From Ignavibacteriales bacterium (GTDB lineage: Bacteria > Bacteroidota > Ignavibacteria > UBA10030 > UBA6906): a stretch of 33,400 bases of DNA. The stretch spans positions 1-33,400 of the forward strand of contig JBBIRR010000041.1 of assembly GCA_037441705.1 (NCBI GenBank), written 5' to 3'. How positions within the stretch are numbered: the stretch's first letter is position 1; each line of letters begins with the position of its first letter. A program made the translations under genes and the position numbers. The notes beneath the pieces are model-generated. The model ran no database searches and was not told where the DNA came from. It was given only the letters and a program-made list of their open reading frames with translations. This document shows, piece by piece, positions 6,581 to 33,400 of the stretch.

Positions 6581-6610
6581 GGAACGGCATTGCACGAGGG
6601 ATTCCTCGAG

Positions 6611-6676: not shown

Positions 6677-6698
6677 CATTAGCTTGATATCGTTCATC

Positions 6699-6772
6699 GC
6701 CGACGTAGCTCAGCTGGTTAGAGCATCAGATTGTGGATCTGAGGGTCGTAGGTTCGAGTCCTACCGTCGGTA
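6699..6772 (+). tRNA. tRNA-His (GTG); no encoded G-1, G1:U72, A73, CCA not encoded
   Basis: Acceptor GCCGACG/CGTCGGT, D arm GCTC..GAGC, anticodon arm TCAGA-TTGTGGA-TCTGA, T arm GTAGG-TTCGAGT-CCTAC. Confidence 0.95.
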
Positions 6773-6822
6773 CACGATACTGCGTCACTCCACCCGAATG
6801 GATTCAGGGGAGTGCATGATGT

Positions 6823-6867
6823 TCGCCCGCGTGGTGCGCGTCCACGCGGGCGATTGCATTTTTCTTC
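6823..6867 (+). terminator. intrinsic terminator after tRNA-His
   Basis: 12-bp stem TCGCCCGCGTGG / CCACGCGGGCGA followed by TTGCATTTTTCTT. Confidence 0.6.
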
Positions 6868-6919
6868 TGCCACAAATGACCAGGAGAGTTAGGAGCTCCA
6901 GTAGGGCCGACTTCGGCGA

Positions 6920-6948
6920 TTGCTCCTGACACACTTTTGACGTATATT
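6920..6948 (+). promoter_or_regulatory. sigma70-type promoter upstream of tRNA-Met
   Basis: TTGCTC-17 nt-TATATT. Confidence 0.55.
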
Positions 6949-6977
6949 GTGTACGGCATCTGTATGTCGCAGAAGAT

Positions 6978-7054
6978 GGCGGGATAGCTCAGCTGGTTAG
7001 AGCGTCGGAATCATAATCCGTAGGTCGGGGGTTCGAATCCCTCTCCCGCTACCA
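6978..7054 (+). tRNA. tRNA-Met (CAT), most likely elongator
   Basis: GGCGGGA/TCCCGCT acceptor, A73, encoded CCA, anticodon loop ATCATAA, T arm GGGGG-TTCGAAT-CCCTC; lacks the initiator C1:A72 mismatch and the three G-C anticodon-stem pairs. Confidence 0.9.
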
Positions 7055-7460
7055 CACCCTTTGGGTCGCCGGCTCACCTGAAGAATATTTTTCGAAAGAC
7101 TGCTTTCCGTTAGGTTTTTCCTACTGCCTTTACTATATTGAGCAGCGAGCTTTCCGTCGCGCTGTTCTTTAACGTATCCTGTGAAACGTGCCTTTCCAAC
7201 GGGTTTTTCCCATGCTTCTTGAAACGAAAGTGCCTCTCCCGTCATGTCCCATCCACACAGGATATAGAACGAACATCAGGTATGCCCTCCTTGATTTGAT
7301 ACATCCCTCCTTATCGCCGGAACGGCGGGCCGAACGTACGACCATCTCACCATCCGAGCTTCGTGTCCGATCAGCGCATGCTCGGTGAACCATCTCACAA
7401 GAACAGAATGAACATCGCAGATTTGCACATCCCTCAATACACGAGACAGGAGGATCGAAA

Positions 7461-7970
7461 GTGAAACAGCGACGGCACGCACATAATCTTGTGGTGGTCG
7501 GAACAACATTCGCGCAGATGATTGCAGGCTACGTCTGGGGCCAGGCAAAGCTCATGAGTACATACGAGTTGACGAACCGCGCTTCTGTCATCGCGGTGGC
7601 AAAAGTGGCGACCGTGCAATCGGAGTGGAGTTCGGATCGTTCGCGGATACTGACGCGCGTCGGGCTTTCGGTTGAACAGTACCTGAAGGGTGAGCGGGCC
7701 GAACGCGCACTCACGATTGTCGTCCCCGGTGGCGAGATTGATGGCGTGGGTGAGTTGTACAGTCACGCCGCGCGATTCAAACCTCACGAGGAGGTTGTTC
7801 TCTTCGCCGAGCGAGACACTCGTGGCAACCTGCGTGTTGTAGGGGGCGAACAGGGGAAGTTTACTGTTGTCGAAGACAAAGCAAGCGGCAGAAGATTCGT
7901 GGGTGAGGATCAGGCATTCGAGATATTTACAGAGAGAATCAAGCAGGTAGTGAAGGCGAATCCAAGGTAG
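7461..7970 (+). CDS. secreted hypothetical protein (resembles small proteins or prodomains found ahead of matrixin-like proteases)
   Basis: GTG start after AGGAGG; weak signal peptide ending VWG|Q; ELTNRASVIAVAKV..VEQYLKG..VPGGEIDG..EEVVLF..QGKF pattern. Confidence 0.7.
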   Translation: MKQRRHAHNLVVVGTTFAQMIAGYVWGQAKLMSTYELTNRASVIAVAKVATVQSEWSSDRSRILTRVGLSVEQYLKGERAERALTIVVPGGEIDGVGELYSHAARFKPHEEVVLFAERDTRGNLRVVGGEQGKFTVVEDKASGRRFVGEDQAFEIFTERIKQVVKANPR

Positions 7971-8040
7971 TCGGACTGAATCAGTTTCCCCGGATGCCGC
8001 CGCATGGCAGCACCGATCCATCACGATGCAAGGAGCTTCA

Positions 8041-9225
8041 ATGTCAACTACGCGCGGTCGCCTCCTCCTGCCGAACTTTGTATTCCGGCGCCTCCTCCTT
8101 TGGTTCGTACTCTTCTTCACCGCGCTGCCGTCCCGCGCACAACTTGACTCGGTGCTGGTTCCCTTCGGGGGGGCGAACTACAAATATCTGATCACCAAGG
8201 CGCAGACGATTCCGCGCAACTACGAACACCCGACCTTTGACGACTCGCGCTGGGCCGCCGCCAGAGCGGCATTCGGCACGCTCTCCATCCCCAACACGCC
8301 TCCTTGCCCGCTGAACGACACGGCCTTCGTCAAGACGTTCTGGGATCAGTCGCGGGAAATTCTCCTCAGGAAGCGGTTCAATCTGCCGGCCGGAGCACAG
8401 AACGTCCGCGTTACGGTTGCCATTGACAATGCGGTTCAGGTGTATTTCAACGGGACGGACATCTCGGGCGGCATCCGCTACCACGATGATTGCGCCTCGG
8501 CCACCGGCGATTTCACGTTCAGCGTGCCCGCTTCGCTTCTGAGAGTCGGCGAAAACGTGATCGCTGTGCGCGGATTCTGGCAGAGCGGGAAGAGCTATCT
8601 CGACATCAAGGTTCTGGGCGACATCGTCTTTACGATTACAGCGACTGCCGGACCGAACGGCTCGATTGCACCAAGCGGGGCGGTGAGTGTCAACTACGGC
8701 GCAAATCAAACCTTCACCATTACTCCTAACGCACAATACCGCGTCGCCGATGTTGTGGTTGACGGCAACTCCCAAGGATCGATCACAAGCTACACGTTCA
8801 CGAACGTTACTGCCAACCATACGATCAGCGCAACGTTTGTGCCCGAAAGCCACACGATCACCGCATCAGCCGGGGCGAACGGCACCATCACGCCGAGCGG
8901 GGCGGTGGTCGTCAGCAGCGGCACGAACCAGCTCTTCACTTTCACACCCGATCCGCATTACCATGTTGACAGCGTGTTTGTTGATGGGGTGCATGTGGGC
9001 GCGCCGGCGAGCTACGAATTCACGAACGTGATCGCCGACCATTCCATCCTTGTGAAGTTTGCCATTGATACCTACGTCATCACCGCAACAGCGCAAGCTA
9101 ACGGTGCAATCTCTCCTTCGGGATCGGTGATTGTGGCGCACGGTTCGTCCCCAACCTTCGCTGGGCAAGAAGGATGTCGAGAATGTTGCCGTGCACGAAG
9201 TGGGACACTTCAGCGGGCTTGGTGA
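8041..9225 (+). CDS. N-terminal part of a secreted multidomain protein: galactose-binding-like jelly roll plus about 2.4 beta-rich surface repeats (InlB B-repeat-like); reading frame broken near 9160
   Basis: Signal peptide ..PSRA|Q; FDDSRW..AAFG..LRKRFNLP..IDNAVQVYFNG..GENVIAV motif; repeats of [FHY][TV]ITA[TS]AxxNGxIxPSG; the tail after SPTF is non-homologous. Confidence 0.7.
   Translation: MSTTRGRLLLPNFVFRRLLLWFVLFFTALPSRAQLDSVLVPFGGANYKYLITKAQTIPRNYEHPTFDDSRWAAARAAFGTLSIPNTPPCPLNDTAFVKTFWDQSREILLRKRFNLPAGAQNVRVTVAIDNAVQVYFNGTDISGGIRYHDDCASATGDFTFSVPASLLRVGENVIAVRGFWQSGKSYLDIKVLGDIVFTITATAGPNGSIAPSGAVSVNYGANQTFTITPNAQYRVADVVVDGNSQGSITSYTFTNVTANHTISATFVPESHTITASAGANGTITPSGAVVVSSGTNQLFTFTPDPHYHVDSVFVDGVHVGAPASYEFTNVIADHSILVKFAIDTYVITATAQANGAISPSGSVIVAHGSSPTFAGQEGCRECCRARSGTLQRAW
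8629..9159 (+). repeat. tandem 74-aa (222-nt) coding repeats, third copy truncated
   Basis: Units start at 8629 (FTITATAG), 8851 (HTITASAG) and 9073 (YVITATAQ). Confidence 0.85.
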
Positions 9226-9655
9226 TATCTACAATCCGGGATTCCCGCAGTATCTTCCGTTCATGGGAACGGATAACGACACGGTGACGATGTACGGCTT
9301 CATCAGAAACGGCGAGGTAGTGAAGCGTGACTTGGATGTTCCGGATACGTCCGGCATCGGGTATATCTACCGGAACATTCCGCGGACGCGCATGGATGTC
9401 GTTCTCATCTTTGACGGCGCTGGCAATTTCGCTTCGCCATCGGCGTACAATGGATTTGTGCCCGCAAAGAACAATGCCGCCGCGCTGATTCAAAAGATGC
9501 GTACGGGCGATCGAGTTGGCGTCATCAGACTTCCGAACACGATTATTTCTCCTCTCACCACAATACAGGATAGCGCCTCACGCAGCGGCGTGTTTTTCTA
9601 CCGCTTGCAGGCCGGTGACTTCGTTGCTCATCGCAAGATGATGATGTTGAAGTAA
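9161..9655 (+). pseudogene. fragment in another frame: metzincin active-site half + start of a VWA domain + last residues of a T9SS C-terminal domain
   Basis: HEVGHFSGLGD (9194-9226) and TVTMYG Met-turn; DVVLIFD...DRVGVI (VWA-like); then abruptly SGVFFYRLQAGDFVAHRKMMMLK stop; no credible start of its own. Confidence 0.6.
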
Positions 9656-9676
9656 CGACTAGGCCGAGACGATGGA

Positions 9677-9709
9677 CTCCGCTTGCTTCCAGATTTATGG
9701 CAAGCGGAG
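9677..9709 (+). terminator. hairpin after the T9SS-type stop codon
   Basis: CTCCGCTTGC / GCAAGCGGAG 10-bp stem; weak U-tract. Confidence 0.4.
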
Positions 9710-9804
9710 CCTATCCTCGTTGGCCTGGCATTTTATGATTCATTGATTGAGTTGCAGGGGTGCCAGAGTTCATCTCTCAAAACGCAAGGAACTTCTTGAA
9801 GTAG

Positions 9805-12800
9805 ATGTGTGCACGGTCGTTTAGCGGTTTCCTTCTTCTTGTCGTAACGATTTGTTCGTTAGGAGTTTCCCAACCAAAGATCAGGTTCTCCCACCTCTCC
9901 GTCCAGCAGGGGCTTTCGCAAAGCGCGGTCAACTGTATCTTTCAGGATCGCCAGGGGTTTATGTGGTTCGGAACGCAGGACGGTTTGAACCGCTACGACG
10001 GCTATTCGTTCAAAGTATTCAAACACAATCCTGCCGACACAGGCAGTATTAGTGACAACTTTATTGTCTCGATCAGCGAGGACAACGAAGGGGTGTTGTG
10101 GATTGAGACACTGAACACTCCCGCGGTGCTGAACCGCTTCGACGGATTGACAGAAACATTCGCCCGGCGCGTGAAGGACAGCGTTGACCTGAAAAACGCG
10201 CGGCGAAGTTCTGTCTTCTCGTCCCATGAGGATCAGCACGGCGTCCGGTGGGAAGGATCAGTTGGTGGAGGAGTGACGAGGCTCGACATGCGCACAGGAG
10301 CGAAGAAGGAGTACAAGCACGATGCGAAAGACCCCGGCAGCCTCAGCGACAATCGCGTGTACTCTGTGTACGGCGACCGCGCCGGCACAATTTGGGTGGG
10401 CACGCGTGAAGGTCTCGATCGCTACGACCCTTCGACCGACTCGTTCGTCCACTACAGGCATGATGATCGCGATCCGCATTCGTTGAGCGACAACTGGGTG
10501 TGGCCGATCGTTGAAGATCGCACGGGCGTCCTTTGGGTCGGTACGGCGCGCGGCGGCTTGAATCGGTTCGATCGGACGACGGGGCGGTTCACCACGTTCA
10601 AGCGTGACCCTTCCGACACGAGAAGCTTGAGCGACGATTTCGTCCTTTCCATTTATCAAGATCGCTCGGGGCTGATGTGGGTGGGAACGAGCGGGGACGG
10701 TCTCAACACCTTCCATCCCGAACTGAATGCCTTCCACACCTTTGCAAACGATCCCCGCAACCCAAACAGTTTAGCAGACAACACGATCCGCGCGATGTAC
10801 GTTGATCGGGCCGGCATCGCATGGATTGGCACGCCTGCGGGACTCGATCGCTTCGACCGCGAGCAAGGAACCTTCATTCATTACAAAATCAATCCGAAGA
10901 ATCCAAAAAGTCTTGGAGACATCCCGAACGTTCTGTTTGAAGATCGCGCAGGCGGGTTCTGGGTAGGGACGTTCAGCAACGGGCTTGACCGTCTCGACCG
11001 GGCGACAGGCACGTTTACGCATTTTCGTCGCGATCCCGCTCGGCCCAACAGCTTGAGCGACAACCGCATCTACGCGCTTGCTGAAGACCGCGTCGGGGCG
11101 TTGTGGGTGGGAACCTACGGTGGAGGCCTGAATCGCTTGGACCCCGCCACAGGAACGTTCAAAGTCTTCGCGTACGACCCTACCGGCAGAACAGGCCCAA
11201 CGGCAAAAGGAGTCTGGTCGCTCTGCGTTGACCACGAGGGCGTTCTGTGGGTGGGGACGTACGGCGGCGGGCTGAATCGGTTCGACCTTCATACGGAATC
11301 GTTCACGTCTTTCAAGCACAACAAAGACGATACAACAAGTATCAGCGACGATACGATCATCTCCATCTACGAGGATCGCTCGCACAGGTTGTGGGTGGGA
11401 ACGACGGCCGGGCTGAATCGTTTCGATCGGGCAACGCGAACCTTTACGCGTTATCGCGAGAAGGACGGGCTGCCCAACGATTTCATCTTCGGTATACTCG
11501 AAGATGGTAACGGACGATTGTGGTTAAGCACGAATAAAGGTCTCTCACGCTTCGACCCAGCCACATCAACGTTCCGTAACTACGACGTCAACGATGGCTT
11601 GCAGGGAAATGAGTTCAACCAGAATGCGTATGCCCGAAGCGGGCGAACAGGGGAGATGTACTTCGGGGGAGGCAACGGCTTCAACGTGTTCCACCCCGAG
11701 AGTGTGAAAGAGAACGCGTTTCTTCCGCCTGTGGTCATCAGCGGCTTCCGTCGCTACAATACCGATGATGCCGAGGGCAAGCCCATCGAAGAACGGGGAG
11801 TGCCATTGCGAGAGGGGATCGAACTGAGTTACAAGGACAACATTGCGACGTTCGACTTTTCCGCTCTGAGTTTCTACAACGCGTTCAAGAATCGCTACGC
11901 GTACAGGTTGGAAGGATTCAGCGAGAACTGGATTCAGCTCGGCACGACGCGCACCGCGACGTTCACCAATCTCGATGCAGGCGAGTATGTGCTTCACGTG
12001 CGAGGCTCGAACAATGACGGTTTGTGGAACGAGGACGGAGCTTCGCTACGCCTCGTCGTAACGCCGCCGTGGTGGAAAACGCGATGGGCATACGCTGCGT
12101 ATGTCTTGATCTTCTTCGGCATTCTGTACGAGTTACGGCGATTCGAAATCAACAGACGCGAGCAGAAGGCGCGCTTGCGCGAATCGGAGCTGCGTGCAAA
12201 AGCCGCCGAAGCCGAGAAGCGCGTGTTAGAAGTCGAAAACGAGCGGAAGACGAAAGAGCTGGAGGAGGCCCGAGAACTGCAGCTTTCGATGCTGCCGCGC
12301 GAGATTCCGAAGCTGCCGAACCTCGAGATCGCCGTCTTCATGAAAACCGCGACAGAAGTCGGCGGCGACTACTACGACTTCCATCTTACACCCGACGGAG
12401 TTCTCAGCGTCGCCTGCGGCGATGCGACGGGGCACGGCATGCAGGCAGGCACGGTGGTCACGTTGATGAAAGGCCTCTTCACCTCTGACGCGTCGCGGCT
12501 CGACATCAAGTCGTTCTTCAATCACAGCAGCCTCGCCATCAAAAACATCAAAATGGGCCGGCTGATGATGGCTTTCACAATGCTGAAAATCCACAACCGA
12601 CATGTGGCGTTTGCCTCTGCGGGCATGCCGCCCCTTTTTGTCTGGCGAGAGAAACAGGGCACGGTGGAGGAAATCCTGTTGAAGGGGATGCCGTTAGGTG
12701 CCATGAAGAATTTTCCGTATGTTGTGCATGAAGAAGAACTCCAGGCTGGCGACCTGCTCCTTGTTCTTTCCGACGGACTGCCGGAGCAAAAGAATGCAAC

Positions 12801-22509: not shown

Positions 22510-24339
22510 TTACCTCAAGTACACCATCTTCTTTGTCTGCGATTGATTGCCTACCCTGAGCGTGTAGTAATACACACCTCCAGCCAGATTTTCCGGTGAG
22601 AATTCTACAGTGTACTCGCCCGGTGTGCGGTAGTCGTTCAGCGGCGTTGCAACGACCTGCCCAAGGACGTTCGTCACCGTCAAGCTTACGTACGCCTCCT
22701 TCGGAATCGAGAATCGAATACGCGTTGATGGATTGAACGGATTGGGATAGTTCTGCTCAAGCTTGAACGATGACGGTTCCAAACCGCCTTCATCTACGCC
22801 TGTTGTTGTGAAGGTGTACGCAGCCACATAGACGTTCGTTTGCATGATGTTGTCAGGCGGCCAGGTATTGATGCCGGCCTGGTAACATCGGAACAGGAAG
22901 AGAGTGTAGCTGTTGCCCCCGTTCCATTTCACCGTCGGTGCAGCATGAAGCAGCATCTCCGCAAAATCCGGTGTTTGAGAGATGTTGATGGGTGTTGACC
23001 ATGACGGATCAGTAATCCTTCTGTACGAGAACCAAATTTCGGGCAGCGTATCGTTTGGTGAAAGCGAGGCTGCTTCAAGCCAGACAAACGTCATCAGTTG
23101 ACCATCGGAACTGATGGAGGCCTGAATGGAGTGATTGGTTTGACTCAGATTTCCTTGGGTTGGACTGGGATAGTACAAAACGGTTTGGCGCGCGAGGTTA
23201 CGCTTGATGAACTTCGCTTCCCAGCCGGTGGGCGTCTGGTAGACTTCAAGGAGGTGTCTCTGCTGCTGGTCGGTAGCAGGTGTGTCGGCCACCGGATAGA
23301 AGAAGTGCGCCATACCGTTCGCGTCGATCACCATGTCCGCATTGTAATCCACCGTGCCGCCCGGTGGTTGTGCGAAGTCGTACAGATCGTATGCAGCACC
23401 CAGGCCTGTTGCGATTCCCCAATCGGGTTGGGGTCGTATCCATGGCCCCCACGTCGCGCCATTATCGGTCGTGCGGCTGTAGCCAACGTTAAATGCGTTC
23501 GCAAGCGAGTCGGGATAGAACAACCCGTTGACCGCGAAGTAGCCGCCCTGATTGGTTGCCTTGCCAACGACAAAGCCGAGTGAGTTGATAAAATACGGAA
23601 TGGTATCGCGCCAGTGAGGAGGCGTTTGCCGTATCACCGTGAGATAGTCGTTCGTTCGCCATGTCAGATGGTCGTTCGGAATTCCGGACGCCAATCGACT
23701 CGATGCCCAGTTGACCCAATCGGAGTTTGGATAGCTCCAGATCGAGAGTGCAGCTGTGAGGTCGTTCGTTGCCGGATCCACCGTCGCAATTCCGGCCCCG
23801 GCACCGAGCGGAAAATCGACACCATACGTAATTTGCCCGAACGCACCGCCGTTGATAAGATTGGGCGCCGCCCATACAAAAAGTAGCTGCGACGTGTCGG
23901 CTGTACCCGCGGGGTTGGAAATCGTGCAACTCGGATAACGCAGGCTTTGCGGCGTTCCTCCGGAGAGTTCGCCTGCACGGTACCAGCTCACCCCGTTATT
24001 TCGTGAGACGTTGTACCATAGCTGACCGCTCGTTCCATACGGTGGAGCACCCCGGTGGATCAGCACCAGCGTGTTGCTCGCCTGATCGTATGCGAGTGGT
24101 TTGACTTGATCATTCGCGGGACCGAAGGCGTTGGCCATCGAGTCCACAAGAACCCAGTTCAGGACAAGCGGGTTGTCGAGTCCAGGGATGTACTGCCCGT
24201 TTCCCGTTGATGCGCGCGCGATGCCATCATCAATTGCGAGCGGTGCAGGTCGTGCATTGCGTAGGTCGAATCTCTTTCCGGCGAAAGAGAGTGACGTCGC
24301 AAGAGAGATACAGCAGGCAATGAGTAACGCCTTCCTCAT
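22510..24339 (-). CDS. secreted T9SS cargo protein with BNR/Asp-box beta-propeller-like body
   Basis: GGAGG SD and MRKALL.. signal peptide; Asp-box-like SRNNGVSW and TTDNGATW; CTD FKLEQNYPNPFNPST...GVYYYTL..KKMVYLR. Confidence 0.88.
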   Translation of the reverse strand: MRKALLIACCISLATSLSFAGKRFDLRNARPAPLAIDDGIARASTGNGQYIPGLDNPLVLNWVLVDSMANAFGPANDQVKPLAYDQASNTLVLIHRGAPPYGTSGQLWYNVSRNNGVSWYRAGELSGGTPQSLRYPSCTISNPAGTADTSQLLFVWAAPNLINGGAFGQITYGVDFPLGAGAGIATVDPATNDLTAALSIWSYPNSDWVNWASSRLASGIPNDHLTWRTNDYLTVIRQTPPHWRDTIPYFINSLGFVVGKATNQGGYFAVNGLFYPDSLANAFNVGYSRTTDNGATWGPWIRPQPDWGIATGLGAAYDLYDFAQPPGGTVDYNADMVIDANGMAHFFYPVADTPATDQQQRHLLEVYQTPTGWEAKFIKRNLARQTVLYYPSPTQGNLSQTNHSIQASISSDGQLMTFVWLEAASLSPNDTLPEIWFSYRRITDPSWSTPINISQTPDFAEMLLHAAPTVKWNGGNSYTLFLFRCYQAGINTWPPDNIMQTNVYVAAYTFTTTGVDEGGLEPSSFKLEQNYPNPFNPSTRIRFSIPKEAYVSLTVTNVLGQVVATPLNDYRTPGEYTVEFSPENLAGGVYYYTLRVGNQSQTKKMVYLR

Positions 24340-24401
24340 GGCGAACCTCCAGTTGTTGATTGATGTGATGAGTTCGAAGTGATGGTGAAAAACCACGGAC
24401 T

Positions 24402-24430
24402 AAGATAGGAAGAGCAAGAGGCAAAAGCAA
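24402..24430 (-). promoter_or_regulatory. sigma70-type promoter of the T9SS cargo gene
   Basis: Minus strand TTGCTT-17 nt-TATCTT. Confidence 0.45.
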
Positions 24431-24478
24431 CCATGACGTGCAAGCACGAGAGGGAGATCGTTCCGTTCGCGCGAAAAC

Positions 24479-24892
24479 CTATTCTCCAATTACCTTGATA
24501 ACAACTCTCTTGCGCCGTTGCCCGTCGAACTCTGCGTAGTAGATTTGCTGCCAGGGACCAAAGTCGAGCGCGCCGTTGGTGATGGGAACGATCACTTCGT
24601 GGTGGATGAGAAGACTTTTCAAATGTGCATCGCCGTTGGTTTCACCCGTGCGATGGTGGCGATAGTTTGGATTGAACGGGGCGAGTTTTTCCAACCACTC
24701 ATCGATGTCTTGAATCAACCCTGCTTCGGCATCGTTGACATATACACCGGCAGTGATGTGCATAGCCGAGACAAGAACGAATCCTTCGGTGATGCCACTT
24801 TTCCGTACGGCTTCCTGCACGGTGTCGGTGATGTTGATGTACTCGCGATGCTTCTTGGTGTTGAACCAGAGATACTCGGTATGAGATTTCAT
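24479..24892 (-). CDS. yjbQ: YjbQ/UPF0047 family protein
   Basis: [38 protein letters not shown]; ATG 24892. Confidence 0.92.
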
Positions 24893-24896
24893 GATG

Positions 24897-25277
24897 CTAC
24901 TCTGAGGCAAGGAGTCGTCGTGCTGTTGTTACCAGTTCGGCCGTTACATAGGGCTTGGGCAGAAACTCATCTGCGCCTGCGCGCATGACTTCCTCGCGAA
25001 CGTTGTTGCGTCCGAAGCCGCTGGCGCCGATGATCTTGACTGAAGGCTTCATCTTGCGCACCCGCTCGATCAACTCAACTCCTCCTAACTTAGGCAATCC
25101 CAGGTCTGTCACCACAAGGTCAATCTCATCCGCGTGCGCGGCGAATGTTTCGAGGGCCGACTGGCCGTCGAACGCTTGCAGCACGGAGAAGTTCTCGGCT
25201 TGCAAGATAACGGTAAGGAGATTGTTGATGTCGACCTCGTCTTCCGAGATCAGCACAAGGGGTTTCTTGATCGCCAT
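24897..25277 (-). CDS. single-domain response regulator receiver
   Basis: [20 protein letters not shown] and FLPKPY. Confidence 0.92.
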
Positions 25278-25322
25278 GGCCTTGGTTGGCGTTTCAGAGG
25301 AATACGCTGGAAACCGTGTGCC

Positions 25323-25351
25323 AATATAAAAATACCCCGCCTGAACATCAA
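25323..25351 (-). promoter_or_regulatory. sigma70-type promoter of the receiver-yjbQ pair
   Basis: Minus strand TTGATG-17 nt-TATATT. Confidence 0.55.
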
Positions 25352-25419
25352 TGCTATGACTGAAGCAAATGAGGCTGCAATTACGTATACTGCACCCTGT
25401 ACGGTGGCGTGAGATCTCT

Positions 25420-27216
25420 ATGAAACTGCTCTTATCCTATTTAGAACACTATTGGAAGCTCGTGGTGGTGGCGCTGCTGCTTGCAGCCATCAACCAGACG
25501 TTTTCCCTTCTCGATCCGCTCATCTTTCGCTATATCATCGACGAGTACGTCACGCGCTTCAAAGAATACACGCGTGCCGATTTCCTCCGCGGCGTCGGGC
25601 TGCTGCTGCTCGCGGCGATGGGGGTTGCCTTCGTCTCGCGTGTGGCAAAGAACTTCCAGGACTACGTCATCAACGTCATCACGCAGCGCCTGGGAGCCCG
25701 CATCTACTCCGACGGCTTGCGGCATTCATTGGAGATGCCCTATCAAATGTTCGAGGATCAGCGCAGCGGCGAAACGCTGGGGAAGCTCCAGAAAGTCCGA
25801 ACCGACGTCGAAAAGCTGATTGCCGCGCTCATCAACATCCTGTTCCAATCGCTGGTCGGCATTATCTTCGTCATGGTCTATGCGTTCAGTGTTCATTGGC
25901 TGATCGCGATCGTATACTTTACTACGGTGCCGGCGCTTGGCCTGATCAGCTCCATCCTCAGCAGGAAGCTTAAGTCCATGCAGAAAGTGATCGTACGGGA
26001 AACCACGGCGCTCGCAGGGTCAACTACCGAGTCGTTGCGGAATATTGAGCTGGTCAAGAGTCTCGGCCTTGCACAACAGGAGATTGAACGACTCAACAGC
26101 ACGACGGACAAGATTCTCAGACTCGAGCTAAAGAAGGTGCGCTATCTGCGCAGCCTGAGTTTCATTCAGGGAACATCCGTAAACTTCCTCCGCACCACGA
26201 TTCTGGGCCTCATGCTCTACATGATTTTTGATCAACAGATTACGTTCGGTCAATTCTTCTCGCTCTGGATCTACTCGTTCTTCATCTTTGGGCCCCTGCA
26301 GGAACTCGGCAACGTCATCAACACCTATCGCGAAACGGAAGTATCGCTGAAAAACTTTGAAGAGATTCTCACCGCACAAAAGGAGGCAAAACCCGCGAAG
26401 CCCGTGAAGCTTGACACGATAGAATCGCTGGCATTTCAAAATGTTCGGTTCAAACACCTCTCCTCGACGAAGCATGCGCTCGCCGACATCTCGTTCGAGG
26501 TTCGGCGCGGAGAGACGATTGCATTTGTGGGTCCGTCAGGCTCCGGGAAGACCACACTCGTGAAGCTGCTCATCGGCTTGTATACTCCACACTCGGGAAC
26601 GATTCTGTACAACGGCTATCCGAGGGAGGTGATCGATCTCGAAGGCTTGCGCGAACGCATCGGGGTGGTTACTCAGGATACACAGTTGTTTTCGGGAACG
26701 ATTCGTGAGAACCTCCTCTTTGTGAATCCATCGGCGACGGATGCGGAGTGTCTCGAGGTATTGGAGAAAGCGGCATGCCAGAGCCTCCTTGCACGGGCCG
26801 ATAAGGGACTGGACACCCTGATTGGGGAGGGGGGCGTGAAGGTCTCAGGTGGAGAGAAACAGCGCCTCTCGATCGCACGAGCACTCCTGCGGCATCCGCA
26901 TCTCCTTGTGTTCGATGAAGCAACCTCGTCGCTCGATTCGCTGACCGAAGAGGAAATCAGTGAGACGATTCGTGATGTGTCCATGCAGAAAGACTTGATC
27001 ACCATTCTGATAGCGCATCGACTGTCGACGGTGATGCACGCCGATCGCATTCTTGTGCTGGAACGCGGAAGGATCGTTGAGGTCGGCCAGCATCAATCCC
27101 TGTTGGACCAGAAAGGCCTGTATTACGCCATGTGGCGTCAACAAATTGGTGAAAGGGAGGAAGAAAGACGTGACGGTGAAGGGCTGATGACGACTAACGT
27201 TCTGGCGAAGAACTAA
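25420..27216 (+). CDS. ABC exporter, fused permease + ATPase (MsbA/MdlB-like)
   Basis: N-terminal TM domain, GPSGSGKT, VSGGEKQR, VFDEATS and IAHRLST; likely start ATG 25420. Confidence 0.93.
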   Translation: MKLLLSYLEHYWKLVVVALLLAAINQTFSLLDPLIFRYIIDEYVTRFKEYTRADFLRGVGLLLLAAMGVAFVSRVAKNFQDYVINVITQRLGARIYSDGLRHSLEMPYQMFEDQRSGETLGKLQKVRTDVEKLIAALINILFQSLVGIIFVMVYAFSVHWLIAIVYFTTVPALGLISSILSRKLKSMQKVIVRETTALAGSTTESLRNIELVKSLGLAQQEIERLNSTTDKILRLELKKVRYLRSLSFIQGTSVNFLRTTILGLMLYMIFDQQITFGQFFSLWIYSFFIFGPLQELGNVINTYRETEVSLKNFEEILTAQKEAKPAKPVKLDTIESLAFQNVRFKHLSSTKHALADISFEVRRGETIAFVGPSGSGKTTLVKLLIGLYTPHSGTILYNGYPREVIDLEGLRERIGVVTQDTQLFSGTIRENLLFVNPSATDAECLEVLEKAACQSLLARADKGLDTLIGEGGVKVSGGEKQRLSIARALLRHPHLLVFDEATSSLDSLTEEEISETIRDVSMQKDLITILIAHRLSTVMHADRILVLERGRIVEVGQHQSLLDQKGLYYAMWRQQIGEREEERRDGEGLMTTNVLAKN

Positions 27217-27994
27217 GGAATGAATCGGCAAGGATCTGTTGTGTGAACGGATGCTTTGGGGATGATGCCAGTTCACGTGATGCGGCATGTTCGACGATCA
27301 CGCCGCCGTGCAGCACGGCAATGCGGTCGCACACACGCAATGCAGTATCGAGATCATGAGTGATGAGGAGGAGAGAAAGATGAAAACGATCTCGAATTTG
27401 AAGTAGGAGCGACAGAATCTGCCGTTGGGTGAGAAGGTCAAGGGCCGATGTCGGCTCATCGAGAATCAGAAGGGATGGCTGCGCAGCCAAAGCACGGGCA
27501 ATGGCGATGCGTTGGCGCTGGCCTCCGCTGAGCTGACCGGGCAACAAGGGCAGGAGATCGCTCTCTAGACCCATCGCTTCAAGAAGCTCGACCATCGCTT
27601 CTTCAAGGTCCGGTGCACCGGCGTGTGGGCGTGCTTCGAGTCCCTCACGCAAACAGTCTCTGACTGACATCATAGGATTAAGCGAAGCACTGCTTGCCTG
27701 AAAGACCATCTGCATCTCGGTGCGAAATCGTCTGCGGTTGTTCTCCTCGGGAAAGATGTTTACGGACTTGAAAAGGATCGAGCCGCGATCGGGCCTCTGA
27801 AGGCCCACAATGCATCGGGCGAGTGTTGACTTGCCGCTCCCGCTCGGTCCGACCAATCCCAGAATTTTTCCTTCCTCAAGAGAAAGCGAAACGTCGCTGA
27901 GTACAACGGCTCGCCTCGTAAGAAACCCTCGCCGGTGCGAAGGAACCATCGAGCATTGGAGATTCAGGATCAGCAGAAGCGGTACCTCAGGCAT
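27194..27994 (-). CDS. oligopeptide/dipeptide ABC importer ATPase, OppF/DppF-like
   Basis: GPSGSGKSTL, QMVFQ..SLNP, LSGGQRQR, LDEPTSALD and PKHPFT. Confidence 0.88.
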   Translation of the reverse strand: MPEVPLLLILNLQCSMVPSHRRGFLTRRAVVLSDVSLSLEEGKILGLVGPSGSGKSTLARCIVGLQRPDRGSILFKSVNIFPEENNRRRFRTEMQMVFQASSASLNPMMSVRDCLREGLEARPHAGAPDLEEAMVELLEAMGLESDLLPLLPGQLSGGQRQRIAIARALAAQPSLLILDEPTSALDLLTQRQILSLLLQIRDRFHLSLLLITHDLDTALRVCDRIAVLHGGVIVEHAASRELASSPKHPFTQQILADSFLSSSPER

Positions 27995-28799
27995 GAGCAG
28001 TAAGATGAGTGTTAGAACGGCTGACTCTGTCGTTCAAGGCCTTGAGCAGAAGTTGTGAATACGGATGCTGCGGCGTACGAAAGAACTCTTCGACGGATGC
28101 GTTTTCGATCAATGCACCGTCATGCATAACGGCAACTTCGTCTGCGAAGTGGCGAGCAAAGGCAAGATCGTGTGTCACAAGAATCATCGTCATGCGCTGC
28201 TTGGTTTGTATGGATCGAAGAAGCTTCAGGAGTTGCTTGCGCAGCGAAGCGTCGACGGCACTTGTTGGTTCGTCCGCAATCAATAGCCCTGGTTGCGGCA
28301 GCAGGGCCATGGCGATCATAACGCGCTGGGCCATTCCAACACTCAACTCGTGCGGATATCGTGACAGCACGTCTTCCGGTCGCTCCAAGCCGACCTCAGC
28401 CAGCACCTGCGTGATCTCAGCTTTTGTCGTTTCTCGCCTTCCGCAGGCAAGCAGCATTTGCTTTCCAATAGTGGAAACGGGATTCAACGCCGCGTACGGC
28501 TCTTGAAAAACATAGCGGATAGCATTCTGTCGCAGGTCAGCTAACTCCGAATCGCTACATGCCAGGATGTCCCTCGAATCGAATTGCACGCTTCCGGCTA
28601 TGTCTACGGCAGCGCGGGAGGGAAACAGCCGCGTCAGCGCGCGGCATAGCGTCGTCTTGCCACATCCACTTTCACCCACAAGCGCGAGAGCTTGACCCTT
28701 CAACAGCGAGAAATTGACGTCTCTAACGGCCGGTGACGGTGAGCTGCCTGAGAGATACTTCACCGTAAGTCCACGCACTTCTATCAGGTTCTGTTGCAT
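27987..28799 (-). CDS. oligopeptide/dipeptide ABC importer ATPase, OppD/DppD-like
   Basis: MQQNLIEVRGLTVKY, VGESGCGKT, FQEP..ALNP, YPHELSVGMAQR, ADEPT and PQHPYS; ATG 28799. Confidence 0.9.
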   Translation of the reverse strand: MQQNLIEVRGLTVKYLSGSSPSPAVRDVNFSLLKGQALALVGESGCGKTTLCRALTRLFPSRAAVDIAGSVQFDSRDILACSDSELADLRQNAIRYVFQEPYAALNPVSTIGKQMLLACGRRETTKAEITQVLAEVGLERPEDVLSRYPHELSVGMAQRVMIAMALLPQPGLLIADEPTSAVDASLRKQLLKLLRSIQTKQRMTMILVTHDLAFARHFADEVAVMHDGALIENASVEEFFRTPQHPYSQLLLKALNDRVSRSNTHLTAHA

Positions 28800-29064
28800 T
28801 TCAAAATTTGTTGGAAACTTGCCGGTATAATACTGATTTCTTGGGGCGGGAGTGTGACCTGGAACGAACTGGCTTAATCTACGCAATATTACGTATTTTT
28901 GGCGGTTATCATCGTAAAAAATTGCTAAATGCTATGAAAATCCACTTGCTAATGATTAGTGATTGTTCTATGATTTTCGGCGAAAGGGGGAAGATGATTG
29001 CTAAAGTCTTTCCTTGTTGCACCAACCTAATTCACTCATGTTTCAAAAGTGAAGGAAGTCCCCC

Positions 29065-29403
29065 ATGGCAAAAACCAAATTCCTTTTGGTGATCTCGGCA
29101 ATTCTGCTTTTCGCCGGGATTGCCGTCTGCCAGGAGAGCGTGGAGCAGGCCGTTCGCGTTAGACTGGCAGAAGCTTCACCGCCATTGGTTAATTTAGGGG
29201 CTGTGAGTGTAAATGATGAACTCATTACCCCGTTCGTCCAACAAATCAACATGAGGTCCGCCTCTCAAGTAGAAGCTCTCGGCAGCCAGTACGGCTTCGG
29301 GCGTTCCGCTTCGCAGGTGGAAGCTCTCGGCAGTCAGTATGGCTTCGGGCGTTCTGCTTCGCAGGTGGAAGCTCTCGGCAGTCAGTATGGCTTCGGGCGT
29401 TAG
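29065..29403 (+). CDS. secreted multicore peptide precursor: signal peptide + about 42-aa pro-region + 3x SASQVEALGSQYGFGR
   Basis: GAAGGAAG SD; MAKTKFLLVISAILLFAGIAVC|Q signal peptide; three amino-acid-identical repeats with only synonymous DNA differences; terminator downstream. The CDS call is confident; the function is inferred. Confidence 0.85.
   Translation: MAKTKFLLVISAILLFAGIAVCQESVEQAVRVRLAEASPPLVNLGAVSVNDELITPFVQQINMRSASQVEALGSQYGFGRSASQVEALGSQYGFGRSASQVEALGSQYGFGR
29257..29400 (+). repeat. 3 x 48-nt tandem coding repeat
   Basis: Units 29257-29304, 29305-29352 and 29353-29400; 6 third-position changes between units 1 and 2, and 1 between units 2 and 3. Confidence 0.97.
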
Positions 29404-29488
29404 TCAGTCCGAACAACTTTAGCTTTCATCCTTCCTTTCAAGGGGGAGCCCAAGTTCGACTCTACGTTCGTTCACATGGGGAACCCAC

Positions 29489-29525
29489 AAGCCTTCAATG
29501 TGAGAAATATTGAAGGCTTTTTTTT
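29489..29525 (+). terminator. intrinsic terminator after the precursor gene
   Basis: AAGCCTTCAAT-gtgagaaat-ATTGAAGGCTT followed by a T-run. Confidence 0.8.
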
Positions 29526-29561
29526 ATCGTATACAAGTCTTGCAACCTTCTTGAGAGTTTC

Positions 29562-32501
29562 TTGAGATTCATTTCGCTGGTGATCTGCCTCCTGGCCGCG
29601 GACCACAACGCGTTTCCTGCCGAACAGTTGACAACGCAGTGGTACGAATCGGAGAGTCCGCATTTCCGGATTGTGTACAAGCCCGGCCACGCTCATCTTG
29701 TTCATCATATTCTTGGCTCGGCGGAAAGAGCGCTAGACAGGCTGACCGAGCTGTTTCACTACACACCCTCAGAGAAAATCGTCATCAACACGTACGATGT
29801 CAATGATTACGGCGCCGGGAGTGCTACGACTGTCCCCCGCAACTACCTCTGGCTGGATCTTGCACCTCTCGAACCCGGCTATGAAAACATCCCGTATAAC
29901 GAGCGCATTCAATGGCTGATCAACCATGAACTTGTTCACGTCGTGGTAAATGATCTTGCGACCAACGTCGAAGCTTTCAGTCGTTCCATCTTTTCAAAAG
30001 TTGCTCCTGAACAAGTGCAGCCACTCACGATTCTCTACAGCGTGCTCACCAACTATGGCCGCTACACACCCCGCTGGCACCAGGAAGGTATTGCTGTGTT
30101 TCTGGAAACCTGGTTGAGCGGCGGATTCGGTCGAACGCTCGGCAGTTTTGATGAAATGTATTTCCGCTCTCTGGTTGCCGAAGGCAGACCTTTCCCGTCC
30201 GACATTCTCCTCGAAACGCAGGTTTCTCATAATTCCTTCCTCGTGGAGACTACATATTATCTGTTTGGCGAACGGTTTGTCGCTCACCTTGCCCTACGAT
30301 ACGGGCCGGACAAAATCTTACGATGGTACACAGCTTCTGCTGCCGATCTATACAAGACGTTCAAAGAGAAGTTCAAAGAGGTTTTCGGATCGGATTTCGA
30401 TACCGCATGGCAGGAATTCGTTCAAGCGGAGAAGCAGTTTCAGGAACTCAACCTCACCCGACTTCGCTCCGCGCCCGTTACGCCTGTTGTGCGGCTTACA
30501 GCTCAGCCGATTGGGGCAATCTCGCAACCACATGCAACCTTTGAGGGCGACACGTTGTATTGGGGTGAGCATCGTCCGCATCATCTCGCCGCCATAGGGC
30601 GATTCGTTCGCGCGTCGGCGATATGCGGGGACGTGTCCACACTGCCGACACCGAGTATGCACCAGGTTGCCTCGACCGCTTTCGACCCAAGTACGGGAAA
30701 GTTCTTTTACACTACGAAAAATAACCAACTCTACAGAGACCTCTGGATGCTCGATGTCCATTCGAACGAGCGCAAACTCCTGTTCGAAAATGCTCGGGTG
30801 GGTCATCTTACAGTTGCCGCGTCCACTCATGAGTTGTGGGGAATACGACACAGCGGGGGCGCTGCGTGGCTTGTGTACTCACCTTTTCCGTATGATTCAC
30901 TCGTTCAGCTTCGCTATTTCGACATCGGCGATGAAGTGCATGGGCTGGCCGTTGATCCGTCGGGCCGCACGCTTGCTGTTGTGGTGCACAAAGCCAACGG
31001 CGATCAAGGGATTCTAACGGTCTCCACAGATGTCCTCAAAACAGGTGGCTCGCCGGCATATAACGTGATCACTGACAAGGGGTCTCCGGAAAACCCCAGC
31101 TGGAGTCGCGATGGTAGGACGCTTTACTGGAATGCCTACACGAATGGTGTATCGAATATCTATAAGATGAGCGGTGAGGACATGAAAGTCGTCCCCGTCT
31201 CGCATACGCTCGTTGGGTTATTCAAGCCGATAGAAATTCATCGCGACACGCTCTTCGCCTTTGAGTTTTCCACGGAGGGTTTTATCCCCGTTCTTATTGC
31301 GAACGCGCATGCCGAGCGCCTTCCCGCAATCCAATATCTTGGTCAGCAAATTTATGAGGCATATCCTACTGTCGGGAGTTGGACCTTGCAGCAGGGGGTG
31401 AACAACGACAGTCTCGGCCCCGTCATGCGTACTGAGTACAATGGCTTCCGCCATCTCAGTATCGTGGCTTTCATGCCGGTGATTACAGGCTTCCAATCGA
31501 AGAAAGTGTTAGGACTTTTTGCCCGCATTTCTGATCCAATTCTCAACCACGACGTGACGCTTGAGACCGGCTTTTCCCCATTTGGTGAGAGGCATCAGCC
31601 GACGGACTTCCATCTAAAATTGAAATACGAATACAAGAAAGAATGGGAAGTGGGGTGGGAGTTCAACGGGCCGGACTTTTACGACCTGTTCAACAGCCGA
31701 AAGCGCGGGATGCTCGGAAGTAAGTTCCGCTTCGGGAACACAACCTACTGGATTTACGACAATCCCCATAAGCTCAAACAACAGACTGAGATCACTTTTT
31801 ATACGGGAGTGCAGTTTATCAACGACAACCTTGTGCGCGTCTCCACGCCTGATTTTGTTGTCGCGCAGACTGCTCTTACCTCACAGAGTCTCCGCAGAAC
31901 GATCGGCAGCAGCGACTATGAGAGCGGAAACGAGTATGCTATCACAGCAATGTTCTTCGGCTCTGACCCTCGTAATCCCCAAACGGGGTTTCAGCTCTAC
32001 GGAGAATGGGACAGGTTCACGCCGTATATTGTGCCGCATAATGTCTTGCATTTCAAGATTGCAGCAGGGTATCATGAGGCGCATTCGCGGCTTCGGCAAT
32101 CGCGGTTTTTCTTCGGCGGCTTTGGCAATCGTGAACTCGAAAATGTGGACGCGAAGCAATTCCGGAAGGTGTTTCGCTTTCCCGGCATTCCTATCTATTC
32201 GTTTGGTGTGGATCGGTTTGTAAAGCTGATGGTCGAAAACAATTTTCCTCCCCTCAGGTTTGGCGATGTCTCGCTCGGTCAGCACTTCATGAACCATCTC
32301 GATGCGTCCGTGTACGCCAACGTCTTGCTTACCAACACAAGCCGATGGCTTGGCGCAAGTGTGGGTGCGCAGGCAAATATTGTCTTCAAGCATTGGTCCA
32401 ACCTCGAATCCACTCTGTCCGTCGGCGCAGCGAGGGCCTGGCAGCGCAGTTCTCCGTCGAGCGACTGGTTCATTTCATTCAAGCTGCTGCGTAACAATTG
32501 A
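29562..32501 (+). CDS. exported 979-aa protein: clan MA (gluzincin-like) zinc peptidase + TolB/PD40-like propeller + putative C-terminal outer-membrane beta-barrel
   Basis: TTG start; N-terminal hydrophobic leader; ESPHFRIVY, INHELVH, PRWHQEG; NPSWSRDGRTLYW..NGVSNIY (PD40-like); aromatic alternating strands and FFFGGFG in the C-terminal third. Confidence 0.8.
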   Translation: MRFISLVICLLAADHNAFPAEQLTTQWYESESPHFRIVYKPGHAHLVHHILGSAERALDRLTELFHYTPSEKIVINTYDVNDYGAGSATTVPRNYLWLDLAPLEPGYENIPYNERIQWLINHELVHVVVNDLATNVEAFSRSIFSKVAPEQVQPLTILYSVLTNYGRYTPRWHQEGIAVFLETWLSGGFGRTLGSFDEMYFRSLVAEGRPFPSDILLETQVSHNSFLVETTYYLFGERFVAHLALRYGPDKILRWYTASAADLYKTFKEKFKEVFGSDFDTAWQEFVQAEKQFQELNLTRLRSAPVTPVVRLTAQPIGAISQPHATFEGDTLYWGEHRPHHLAAIGRFVRASAICGDVSTLPTPSMHQVASTAFDPSTGKFFYTTKNNQLYRDLWMLDVHSNERKLLFENARVGHLTVAASTHELWGIRHSGGAAWLVYSPFPYDSLVQLRYFDIGDEVHGLAVDPSGRTLAVVVHKANGDQGILTVSTDVLKTGGSPAYNVITDKGSPENPSWSRDGRTLYWNAYTNGVSNIYKMSGEDMKVVPVSHTLVGLFKPIEIHRDTLFAFEFSTEGFIPVLIANAHAERLPAIQYLGQQIYEAYPTVGSWTLQQGVNNDSLGPVMRTEYNGFRHLSIVAFMPVITGFQSKKVLGLFARISDPILNHDVTLETGFSPFGERHQPTDFHLKLKYEYKKEWEVGWEFNGPDFYDLFNSRKRGMLGSKFRFGNTTYWIYDNPHKLKQQTEITFYTGVQFINDNLVRVSTPDFVVAQTALTSQSLRRTIGSSDYESGNEYAITAMFFGSDPRNPQTGFQLYGEWDRFTPYIVPHNVLHFKIAAGYHEAHSRLRQSRFFFGGFGNRELENVDAKQFRKVFRFPGIPIYSFGVDRFVKLMVENNFPPLRFGDVSLGQHFMNHLDASVYANVLLTNTSRWLGASVGAQANIVFKHWSNLESTLSVGAARAWQRSSPSSDWFISFKLLRNN

Positions 32502-32552
32502 CACGCGAGCCTCAGCCATACCGACCGTTAACGTGACAAGGAATACACATGG

Positions 32553-32581
32553 TTGACAAAGCTGTGCGCTCTGACTATATT
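32553..32581 (+). promoter_or_regulatory. near-consensus sigma70 promoter of the peptide-binding protein gene
   Basis: TTGACA-17 nt-TATATT, 28 nt before ATG 32609. Confidence 0.7.
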
Positions 32582-32608
32582 TAGTCGAAATTCGTTTGTT
32601 TTCAGGGG

Positions 32609-33400
32609 ATGAAGACCATTTGTCTGGCAAAGCGATGGCTTGCCTTTGGAGCTGTTGCTTGCACACTTCTCGGGGGATGTCAGGGGAAACAGCACGATGA
32701 CAGGACGGCGGTCACCATCGCGGTTGAAGGAGATATCGACACTTTCAATCCGATATTCACCGAAGAACTTGTCTCTGCCCAAATCACTGAGCTCCTCTTT
32801 CCGCGCCTTGTAGAGCCCGAGTTCGACACCACTCGCGGCGCGCTCACGTTTTCTCCGCTCTTCGCTTCCGCTTGGGACTTCTCCGACGATCGACGGGAGG
32901 TGACATTCCATCTTCGCAGTGACGCATTCTGGAGCGACGGCGTCCGTGTCACTGCCCGTGATGTCCAATTCTCCTTCGAGCTTTATGCAGACACCGTTGT
33001 TGCAAGCGTGCGGCAAGATGCCGTTCACAACCTGCGCAGGACGAATGGGCGAGTAGATATTGCGACGAGTGTTGTCCCGCTGAATGACTCCACCGTGGTC
33101 TTTCGATTCGAGAAAGCTTCACCGAGCCAGTTGTTTGATGTCGGCGTTCCGATCGTTCCCAGCCACATTCTCAGCAGCGTTCCTCGCAACCGGCTGCGTG
33201 AACATTCATTCAACAAATCGCCTGTTACATCGGGACCCTTTGTGCTGGAACGGCACGTTCCGCTTCAGGAAATCGTCCTGGCTGCGAACAAGTCTGGTTG
33301 GTGCGGCATCAAACCGAATCTCTCCCACCTCGTGTTCAAAGTCCTCCCCGATTACAGATCACGCGTCGCACAACTTGAATCAGGGGAAGTGGACATCGTC
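32609..33400 (+). CDS. family-5 ABC substrate-binding lipoprotein (OppA/DppA-like), truncated by the window end; absent from the ORF track
   Basis: Manual translation MKTICLAKRWLAFGAVACTLLGG|CQGK (lipobox)..DIDTFNP..VTFHLRSDAFWSDGVRVTARDVQFSF..PVTSGPF..QLESGEVDIV. Confidence 0.92.
   Translation, partial: MKTICLAKRWLAFGAVACTLLGGCQGKQHDDRTAVTIAVEGDIDTFNPIFTEELVSAQITELLFPRLVEPEFDTTRGALTFSPLFASAWDFSDDRREVTFHLRSDAFWSDGVRVTARDVQFSFELYADTVVASVRQDAVHNLRRTNGRVDIATSVVPLNDSTVVFRFEKASPSQLFDVGVPIVPSHILSSVPRNRLREHSFNKSPVTSGPFVLERHVPLQEIVLAANKSGWCGIKPNLSHLVFKVLPDYRSRVAQLESGEVDIV

Follow-up and report, generated by a model that had tools for sequence, protein, structure and literature searches.

The window analysed here is a 33,400-nt stretch of DNA from an Ignavibacteriales bacterium (contig JBBIRR010000041.1 of assembly GCA_037441705.1), whose right-hand end encodes a small exported protein of tandem 16-residue repeats (the precursor), a 979-residue protein with an HExxH motif (P979) and part of an oligopeptide (Opp) importer. 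It is the entire contig C41 of a 3.83-Mb, 92-contig genome (G000), and the named relatives of its proteins come from metagenome-assembled genomes of Ignavibacteria. Genes were assigned from the window's list of open reading frames (ORFs) and a Pfam scan. An earlier reading of the same DNA (the original prediction) had placed minus-strand oppF and oppD genes, a divergent repeat precursor, an HExxH protein and an OppA-like lipoprotein here, and the ORFs and Pfam matches bear out each placement:

27194..27994, minus strand: oppF-like ABC ATPase (ABC_tran, E 3.7e-35), which lies beside oppD in congeners too
27987..28886, minus strand: oppD-like ABC ATPase (ABC_tran, E 1.1e-29, and a weak oligo_HPY match, E 7.7e-4)
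28946..28974, plus strand: candidate sigma-70-like promoter, TTGCTA-17-TATGAT, a consensus match only
29065..29403, plus strand: precursor, 112 aa, with an N-terminal hydrophobic signal sequence and three units of 16 aa
29257..29400, plus strand: three tandem 48-bp units encoding SASQVEALGSQYGFGR three times, with the stop codon directly after the final R
29489..29529, plus strand: intrinsic-terminator-like hairpin and T run between the precursor and P979 genes; the same hairpin follows the precursor of genome G006
29562..32501, plus strand: P979, 979 aa, with HELVH at residues 122-126 and one PD40 repeat (Pfam)
32609..33400, plus strand: oppA lipoprotein, 5' part (264 codons; SBP_bac_5, E 6.6e-37; LLGGC lipobox), open at the window end

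The oppD gene probably starts at the ATG of MQQNLIEV, near 28799, and a 265-bp control region separates the divergent oppD and precursor genes. The last 127 bp of C41 are the start of the reverse strand of a second contig, C44, and oppA crosses this join in frame to give a protein of 558 aa. The remainder of oppA on C44 is followed by oppB, oppC, a kinase-STAND-TPR gene, a sigma-54 activator, a 192-aa lipoprotein (u192), a GAF histidine kinase, a PP2C phosphatase and a second GAF kinase. Congeners confirm this join, since 4 of 4 continuous loci examined keep the identical order oppF<oppD< >precursor>P979>oppA>oppB>oppC>kinase-TPR. The Opp/Dpp-type importer set is accordingly complete (SBP_bac_5, E 6.6e-37 and 4e-36; BPD_transp_1, E 1.8e-42 and 2.9e-25; ABC_tran twice), with oppB and oppC beyond the right edge, where they had been predicted to lie. 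A receptor or a modifying enzyme had also been suggested as possible there. C44 supplies a TPR-bearing candidate receptor; no enzyme modifying ribosomally synthesized and post-translationally modified peptides (RiPPs) occurs in the conserved gene set or among 18 ORFs scanned by Pfam (nine at 22510-33400 and nine on C44), which gave only transport, kinase, regulator and phosphatase families.

The precursor comprises a signal peptide (approximately residues 1-22), a VEQAVRVR motif (residues 26-33), a variable linker and three cores. Tandem Repeats Finder reports a 48-bp unit present 3.0 times at 29257-29401 with 92% matches. Nine nucleotide positions vary among the three units and all nine differences are synonymous; the complete lack of non-synonymous differences is far from what chance would give and therefore argues for translation and purifying selection. 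The copy number of three is itself doubtful, because a public 38,920-nt contig, from a run that may be the source sample, omits exactly one 48-nt unit, a two-copy form, and because in another run the contig depths sum to 113-419 over the repeat and to approximately 9 in its flanks. Congener contigs, moreover, frequently break off within the repeat. The true copy number is uncertain, and three may be an underestimate or unstable.

The precursor matches no Pfam or NCBIfam family, and one relative, though not the window precursor itself, matches ALTTAQ_rpt (E 8.4e-7). Close relatives share its architecture with 1 to 11 copies, and their cores differ mainly at position 11 (Q/I/A/E) and position 13 (G/A/I). 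A profile search of 1.84 billion protein representatives returned 112 members of the precursor family at E<=1e-3 and 71 at E<=1e-10, all of which have a signal peptide, a VExAxRxR motif, a linker and 1 to ~21 cores. At other loci the motif reads VE[EQ]A[V]R[YF]R and the cores follow the consensus S-x-S-Q-L-[DE]-E-L-G-x-[RK]-Y-G-[FW]-x-[RK]. Single-copy precursors of 77-80 aa, in which the ORF terminates right at the core, are common. With the synonymous differences noted above, these matches lead us to regard the precursor as a real family under selection. The notion that the repeats serve as beta-barrel strands or as a structural polymer was rejected, as copy numbers of one, two and odd values exist. 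Predicted signal-peptide cuts in precursors and P979 homologues mostly leave Gln first (AVC/QE, SFA/QVEE, HAQ/L..., the slash marking the cut), and such cuts fit the Bacteroidetes Q-rule (PMC10653852).

No Pfam or NCBIfam family covers P979: the window scan gave it no Pfam peptidase family and, at E<=0.01, no Pfam Omp85 family, and its profile matched only TolB-like repeats among PDB sequences. An AlphaFold2 model built on 54 homologues (pLDDT 87.5, pTM 0.86) begins with the signal peptide, modelled as a helix, and continues with three predicted domains:

29643-30467 (residues 28-302), plus strand: gluzincin-like alpha/beta domain, with HELVH at nt 29925-29939
30486-31301 (residues 309-580), plus strand: six-bladed propeller (TolB match, Z 22.7)
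31458-32495 (residues 633-978), plus strand: 16-strand barrel, with 16 long strands in the predicted structure

Foldseek searches with the whole model were swamped by propellers, and the N-terminal domain was therefore folded separately. Modelled alone, and with lower confidence (pLDDT 70.7), it comes nearest to M1 aminopeptidases, matching their catalytic domains with Z 10-10.7 over 109-133 residues (Foldseek E 3.5e-4), and H122, E123, H126, E175 and E182 are invariant across the 54 sequences, down to 30% identity. Gluzincin metallopeptidases (clan MA) combine HExxH with a Glu ligand further downstream on a thermolysin-like fold, a role for which E175 and E182 would be candidates. The predicted barrel matches BamA of D. 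radiodurans (8xnb_B) with Z 18.4 and an rmsd of 4.0 over 284 aligned residues. A long loop between its strands 11 and 12 bears an invariant F851-G-G-F-G-N856, which differs from the VRGY/F motif of Omp85 loop 6. POTRA domains are absent by Pfam, and the model fills residues 28-580 with the gluzincin-like domain and the propeller. The model and its fold matches agree with the peptidase-propeller-barrel reading of the original prediction, and P979 as a whole is predicted with high confidence to join an HExxH domain resembling gluzincins to a TolB-like propeller and an Omp85/BamA-like barrel. The N-terminal domains of Omp85 proteins are periplasmic, and by analogy the peptidase and propeller of P979 should face the periplasm. 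At E<=1e-3, 762 homologues of P979 were detected, and these are unnamed or labelled TolB/YncE-like.

A possible point of contact between the two proteins lies in the core, where G-x-x-aromatic-x-aromatic is invariant and, outside the window's genus, preceded by a polar residue (Glu). This element could fit the Omp85 beta-signal, given as PoxGxxHyxHy in PMC3045335. The motif is short and the likeness is a lead only, and as such it could explain how an Omp85-like barrel would recognise each repeat.

Beyond these conserved domains, many P979 homologues are approximately 1225 aa long, with some 250 additional residues forming a further domain at the N-terminus (P0016-P0020 and P0117; L031, L033, L062 and others, about 0.85 kb upstream of the P979 match); the window's P979 has no such domain, and one of these longer homologues matches Cu_amine_oxidN1 (E 4.8e-7). 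The genome also encodes further HExxH proteins of 1033-1070 aa at G000:C19:27939-31151 (minus strand) and C13:53707-56808 (plus strand), with 22-28% identity to the N-terminal part of P979 and no repeat protein upstream.

The pairing of precursor and P979 is widely kept. Of 11 congeners, 10 have a P979 orthologue (56-84% identity), and a scan of species-representative genomes gave 55 loci with homologues of 46-84% identity. The original prediction had staked itself on such homologues not generally lacking an upstream repeat precursor; a precursor, with 1 to ~21 copies, is present at 26 of the 27 loci that have at least 1500 nt upstream of P979, L054 being the exception. In other genera the order is oppF<oppD< >oppA>oppB>oppC>kinase-TPR>activator>precursor>P979>GAF kinases, and where 10 kb upstream is available (n=21), oppB/oppC are found in 20 loci and the sigma-54 activator in 18. 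The importer genes that were said to bracket the two unusual genes do so in the window's genus; elsewhere oppDF stand apart from an oppABC-kinase-activator-precursor-protease series. The kinase-TPR gene stays near the precursor in either layout, outside the genus as kinase-TPR > sigma-54 activator > precursor and within it about 6 kb away in the same cluster. A gene set that is conserved while its order is not looks like a functional unit. DNA of the locus was matched in six sequencing runs from five studies, with no RNA run among the matches listed.

A distant subfamily of P979 (31-33% identity), in other families of the order, likewise lies 3' of an exported tandem-repeat protein, here membrane-anchored and built of long 8-9-residue tandem repeats (e.g., KDARFAELA, SSELQSALA). 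Further out, past the repeat protein, lie a 260-aa ORF that has no Pfam family and then an ECF sigma gene with RsbW/STAS-like genes, and a gene for a PrsW-family protease follows the P979 homologue downstream:

L083 (G022:C4) 5208-12686, minus strand; also L013-L023: paralogous module of RsbW-like kinase, STAS, ECF sigma, 260-aa ORF, repeat protein, P979 homologue and PrsW

P979-type proteins thus seem, from gene neighbourhood, to be generally paired with an exported repeat substrate. This recurrence in both subfamilies supports a protease-substrate relation, and it also feeds a rival reading of the locus as an envelope relay, weighed below.

The remaining partners suggest what might lie inside the cell. 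The kinase protein, 1260 aa long, combines a Pkinase domain, an AAA_16 STAND module and TPRs; its catalytic motifs and its Walker A motif are intact, and a hydropathy scan found no transmembrane segment. The oppC stop and the kinase start overlap as ATGA, and we propose that the kinase is translationally coupled to oppC. The N-terminus of the sigma-54 activator has no Pfam match and looks like a degenerate receiver. As for the importer, the C-terminal half of OppA is 59-80% identical between congeners. When residues 28-562 of the G006 OppA were co-folded with the final three repeats of the precursor of that genome, the score was 0.00 twice, without controls, and the result carries no weight as evidence.

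Promoters point to how the precursor may be controlled. The sigma-54 promoter consensus consists of GG-N10-GC elements, TGGCAC-N5-TTGC, and a strict form, TGGCA[CT]-N5-[TA]TGC, was searched on both strands of 860,916 bp from the 55 loci. Fifteen of the 17 strict sites sit just upstream of the precursor and on its strand, at 59-111 nt from the precursor start in the 12 loci with a fixed start, and another clade has TGGCAY-N5-TTGG at the equivalent position. A sigma-54 promoter with an activator gene immediately upstream of it suggests autoregulation. In the window, a sigma-54 promoter for the precursor was rejected: there is a poor match only (GGGGAAGATGATTGCT), which is not kept in G006 or G007. 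The sigma-70-like candidate, on the other hand, lies in blocks conserved in both of these genomes, the G006 equivalent being TTGATA-17-TATGTT. The window's cluster has a single strict sigma-54 site, which lies after the PP2C gene and ahead of the second GAF histidine kinase and is present in both G000 and G001:

L003 8535 (= G000:C44:18814) and L026 4279, minus strand: strict sigma-54 site before the second GAF kinase, a motif match

A leader of approximately 390 nt without an obvious ORF follows this site.

A further link to the precursor comes from u192, which belongs to no curated family and whose C-terminus repeats part of the core:

G000:C44:21142-21717 (= L003 10860-11438), minus strand: u192, 192-aa lipoprotein, ending in ...NHFSQYGFGRLQ (...HFSQYGFGRLQ)

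In a six-frame translation of the genome, the heptad SQYGFGR occurs only in this tail and in the three cores. Recent gene conversion was considered as its source and rejected, as the u192 codons differ from the core codons at 4 of 7 residues. Tail and core vary together among genomes, G000 having Q in both:

G007: u192 tail HFSIYGFGR, core GSIYGFGR
G002: u192 tail HFSQYAFGR, core GSQYAFGR
G006 and G001: u192 tail HFSAYGFGR, core GSAYIFGR (position 11 agrees, position 13 does not)

At a Melioribacteraceae locus, a similar lipoprotein ending in HFSRFGWYI lies beside a core ending in GARYAWAK. Such a co-varying tail points to recognition specificity, as in pherotypes. The lipobox Cys and the tail residues H-F-S, Y and F-G-R are kept by all 11 u192 members. 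Two of the 11 match Pfam ZU5, best at E 0.0017 and below curated thresholds, and the top PDB matches of the u192 profile are the ZU5 domains of ankyrin and ZO-1 (E 0.038-0.5, weak), with an Atlas lead of the same kind. Autoproteolysis of ZU5 domains is described at HF/S in PIDD and at SF/S in NLRP1 and CARD8 (PMC3210808). By its profile matches u192 is probably ZU5-like, and self-cleavage at HF/S may release a short peptide that shares the recognition heptad of the core.

Taken together, these features lead us to give somewhat better than even chances to the view that the locus is a dedicated module in which a peptide signal is secreted, processed and re-imported. Export, cleavage, import, sensing and any travel between cells are steps that we infer from the gene content, conservation, folds, motifs, promoters and co-variation reported above. 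In the proposed sequence of events, Sec would export the precursor and removal of the signal peptide would expose Gln. P979 would recognise the tandem 16-residue cores and cut them apart, and its Omp85-like barrel may also pass the peptides across the outer membrane. The lipoprotein OppA and OppBCDF would then carry them into the cytoplasm, where the TPR sensor of the Ser/Thr-kinase-STAND protein would detect them and the signal would be relayed to the sigma-54 enhancer-binding protein, the GAF kinases and the PP2C phosphatase. In most lineages, the activator gene directly 5' of the precursor's sigma-54 promoter would close a positive feedback loop; in the window's genus, self-cleavage of u192 at HF/S would add a second peptide with the same species-specific heptad.

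Several points weigh against this account. Repeat junctions mostly carry R or K, but H in L078 and T in L041/L042, so that no fixed residue points to a cleavage rule. The importer is the only Opp system in the genome, oppA being its sole SBP_bac_5 gene, and could therefore be a housekeeping importer; enterobacterial OppA, moreover, accepts peptides much shorter than 16 residues. The TPR region of the kinase matches RapF/NprR weakly (E 4e-5 to 1e-4), with these matches ranking below generic TPR proteins. As no conserved sigma-54 promoter precedes the precursor in the window's genus, a feedback loop is not evident there. The spread of the system is patchy: of 151 genomes sampled from the class, 7, among them G000, have homologues of at least 49% identity, and these genomes fall in three families. 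One locus, L054, carries P979 without a precursor or opp genes, and in G011 the 411 nt assembled upstream of P979 contain no repeat. Finally, the peptide might never leave the cell, given that the peptidase is presumably periplasmic, where OppA also sits.

This last point is the core of the envelope-relay alternative, in which P979 would be an outer-membrane sensor-protease gated by the state of the envelope or by a ligand of its propeller. The repeat protein would be its reporter substrate, and the peptides would be periplasmic second messengers carried by Opp to the kinase-TPR/sigma-54 pathway, all within one cell and with no cell-to-cell signalling. The ECF sigma gene, anchored repeat protein and PrsW of the paralogous subfamily have the layout of regulated anti-sigma proteolysis, a peptidase and propeller placed before an Omp85-like barrel would by analogy be periplasmic beside the OppA lipoprotein, and a 16-mer exceeds the size limit of general porins, all of which agree with such a relay. 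However, up to ~21 identical copies, species-specific positions and an autoregulatory layout with sigma-54 would suit a dosage-dependent signal better than a reporter substrate, and the ZU5-like lipoprotein tail that co-varies with the core speaks for pherotype-like specificity. We consider a purely cell-autonomous relay unlikely, if the most serious of the competitors. It is much less probable that P979 is a general outer-membrane peptidase that scavenges nutrients for the sole Opp importer of the genome, beside a repeat protein that is unrelated, or structural and uncut. The singleness of that importer and the P979-like HExxH proteins on C13 and C19 without repeat partners would suit it, but it leaves unexplained the pairing of precursor and P979 at 26 of 27 loci, the single-copy precursors that end at the core, the sigma-54 promoter, the oppC-coupled kinase and the matching ZU5 tail. 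Very improbable, in our judgement, is a multicore RiPP-like, bacteriocin-like or other secreted effector, for which P979 would be the maturation protease and exporter while Opp and the regulators would serve immunity, recycling or unrelated regulation. A multicore precursor, a leader-like VExAxRxR motif and a dedicated protease do recall RiPP logic, yet the cores lack Cys and have few modifiable patterns, no modifying enzyme is present among the nine window and nine C44 ORFs scanned, and what is conserved alongside is an importer together with sensors of the cytoplasm.

Further to the left, the convergent ABC exporter at 25369-27216, suspected from the outset to be unrelated, was rejected as a part of the system, being missing from the G007 locus and from 54 of 55 other-genus loci (L054 excepted). 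Upstream, 22510-25277 encodes a lone response regulator, a UPF0047 protein and a protein of 628 aa that carries a C-terminal sorting domain for type IX secretion; the first two of these still adjoin oppF in G007 (88% and 82% identity). At the far end, window bases 1-60 recur within contig C27 at position 48053, and this repeat probably broke the assembly.

Returning to the reading of the locus as a signalling module, its fullest form would make P979 an undescribed class of Omp85-fused metalloproteases that recognise upstream-encoded repeats via a beta-signal-like element. The Opp branch would then yield a diffusible 16-mer autoinducer, read by the kinase-STAND-TPR protein and amplified by sigma-54 feedback, with pherotype-like variation and a second source in a self-cleaving ZU5 lipoprotein, and would represent the first import-type peptide quorum sensing of a diderm phylum. 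We put this combined scheme forward tentatively and hold it, as a whole, to be well short of even chances. Its interest is nonetheless considerable. Import-type peptide signalling, that is, export, proteolysis, Opp uptake and a cytoplasmic TPR sensor, is a textbook feature of the Bacillota, and our searches of the literature outside subscription journals brought up no account of one from Ignavibacteria or from other diderms related to Bacteroidota. If the reading is true, an Omp85-anchored protease, sigma-54 and a eukaryote-like kinase set on a STAND-TPR scaffold, none of them related to the Bacillota components, have been assembled independently into a circuit of this same logic, and the locus would illustrate the handling of peptide signals by cells with two membranes. 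It would also propose a function for a large unannotated family of ~1000-aa proteins, the 762 homologues of P979, a way in which Omp85 barrels might be tied to the recognition of peptides, and a bacterial use of ZU5 self-cleavage for the release of short peptides.

Among known systems, the closest in logic are the RRNPP systems (Rap-Phr, NprR-NprX, PlcR-PapR), which share with the locus a small Sec-exported precursor whose active unit is C-terminal and sometimes multicopy. Tandemly duplicated Phr propeptides are on record in RRNPP(A) signalling of Bacillota (PMC11343458). Also shared, in the mechanism proposed here, would be extracellular or periplasmic proteolysis, Opp import and a TPR-containing cytoplasmic sensor encoded nearby. 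In contrast to RRNPP systems, the host is a diderm, the putative processing enzyme forms one protein with an Omp85-like barrel, the candidate sensor is a Ser/Thr kinase-STAND-TPR protein without a helix-turn-helix (HTH) or phosphatase domain, with a proposed output via a sigma-54 activator, and the unit is 16 residues long in up to ~21 copies. The locus therefore fails membership of RRNPP, given this sensor and given that only Opp is homologous.

P979 resembles Omp85/TpsB proteins (BamA, FhaC) in its predicted 16-strand barrel, in the long strand 11-12 loop with an invariant motif and in having its partner encoded next door, as with TpsA/TpsB, but carries a gluzincin-like domain and a TolB-like propeller in place of POTRA domains. 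In the sigma-W/RsiW system of Bacillus subtilis, an anti-sigma factor undergoes regulated proteolysis involving PrsW, and the distant P979 subfamily recalls it by having a PrsW-family protease on one side and, on the other, an anchored repeat protein that adjoins an ECF sigma gene; the window's system, by contrast, has neither a sigma/anti-sigma pair nor PrsW, its repeat protein lacks an anchor, and where an intramembrane protease would stand it has an importer. Similarly, the invariant H-F-S of the u192 family closes a beta-rich domain whose best (weak) matches are ZU5, as in the ZU5 of PIDD, whereas u192, unlike the proteins of eukaryotic ZU5 autoproteolysis, is a bacterial lipoprotein with a predicted post-cut fragment of only 7 to ~15 residues. 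Lastly, the yeast alpha-factor is made from a multicopy precursor whose identical tandem units are freed by endoproteolysis and whose copy number varies between strains. From it and from neuropeptide precursors, the present system differs in the absence of spacer peptides, in an unrelated protease and in its prokaryotic setting.

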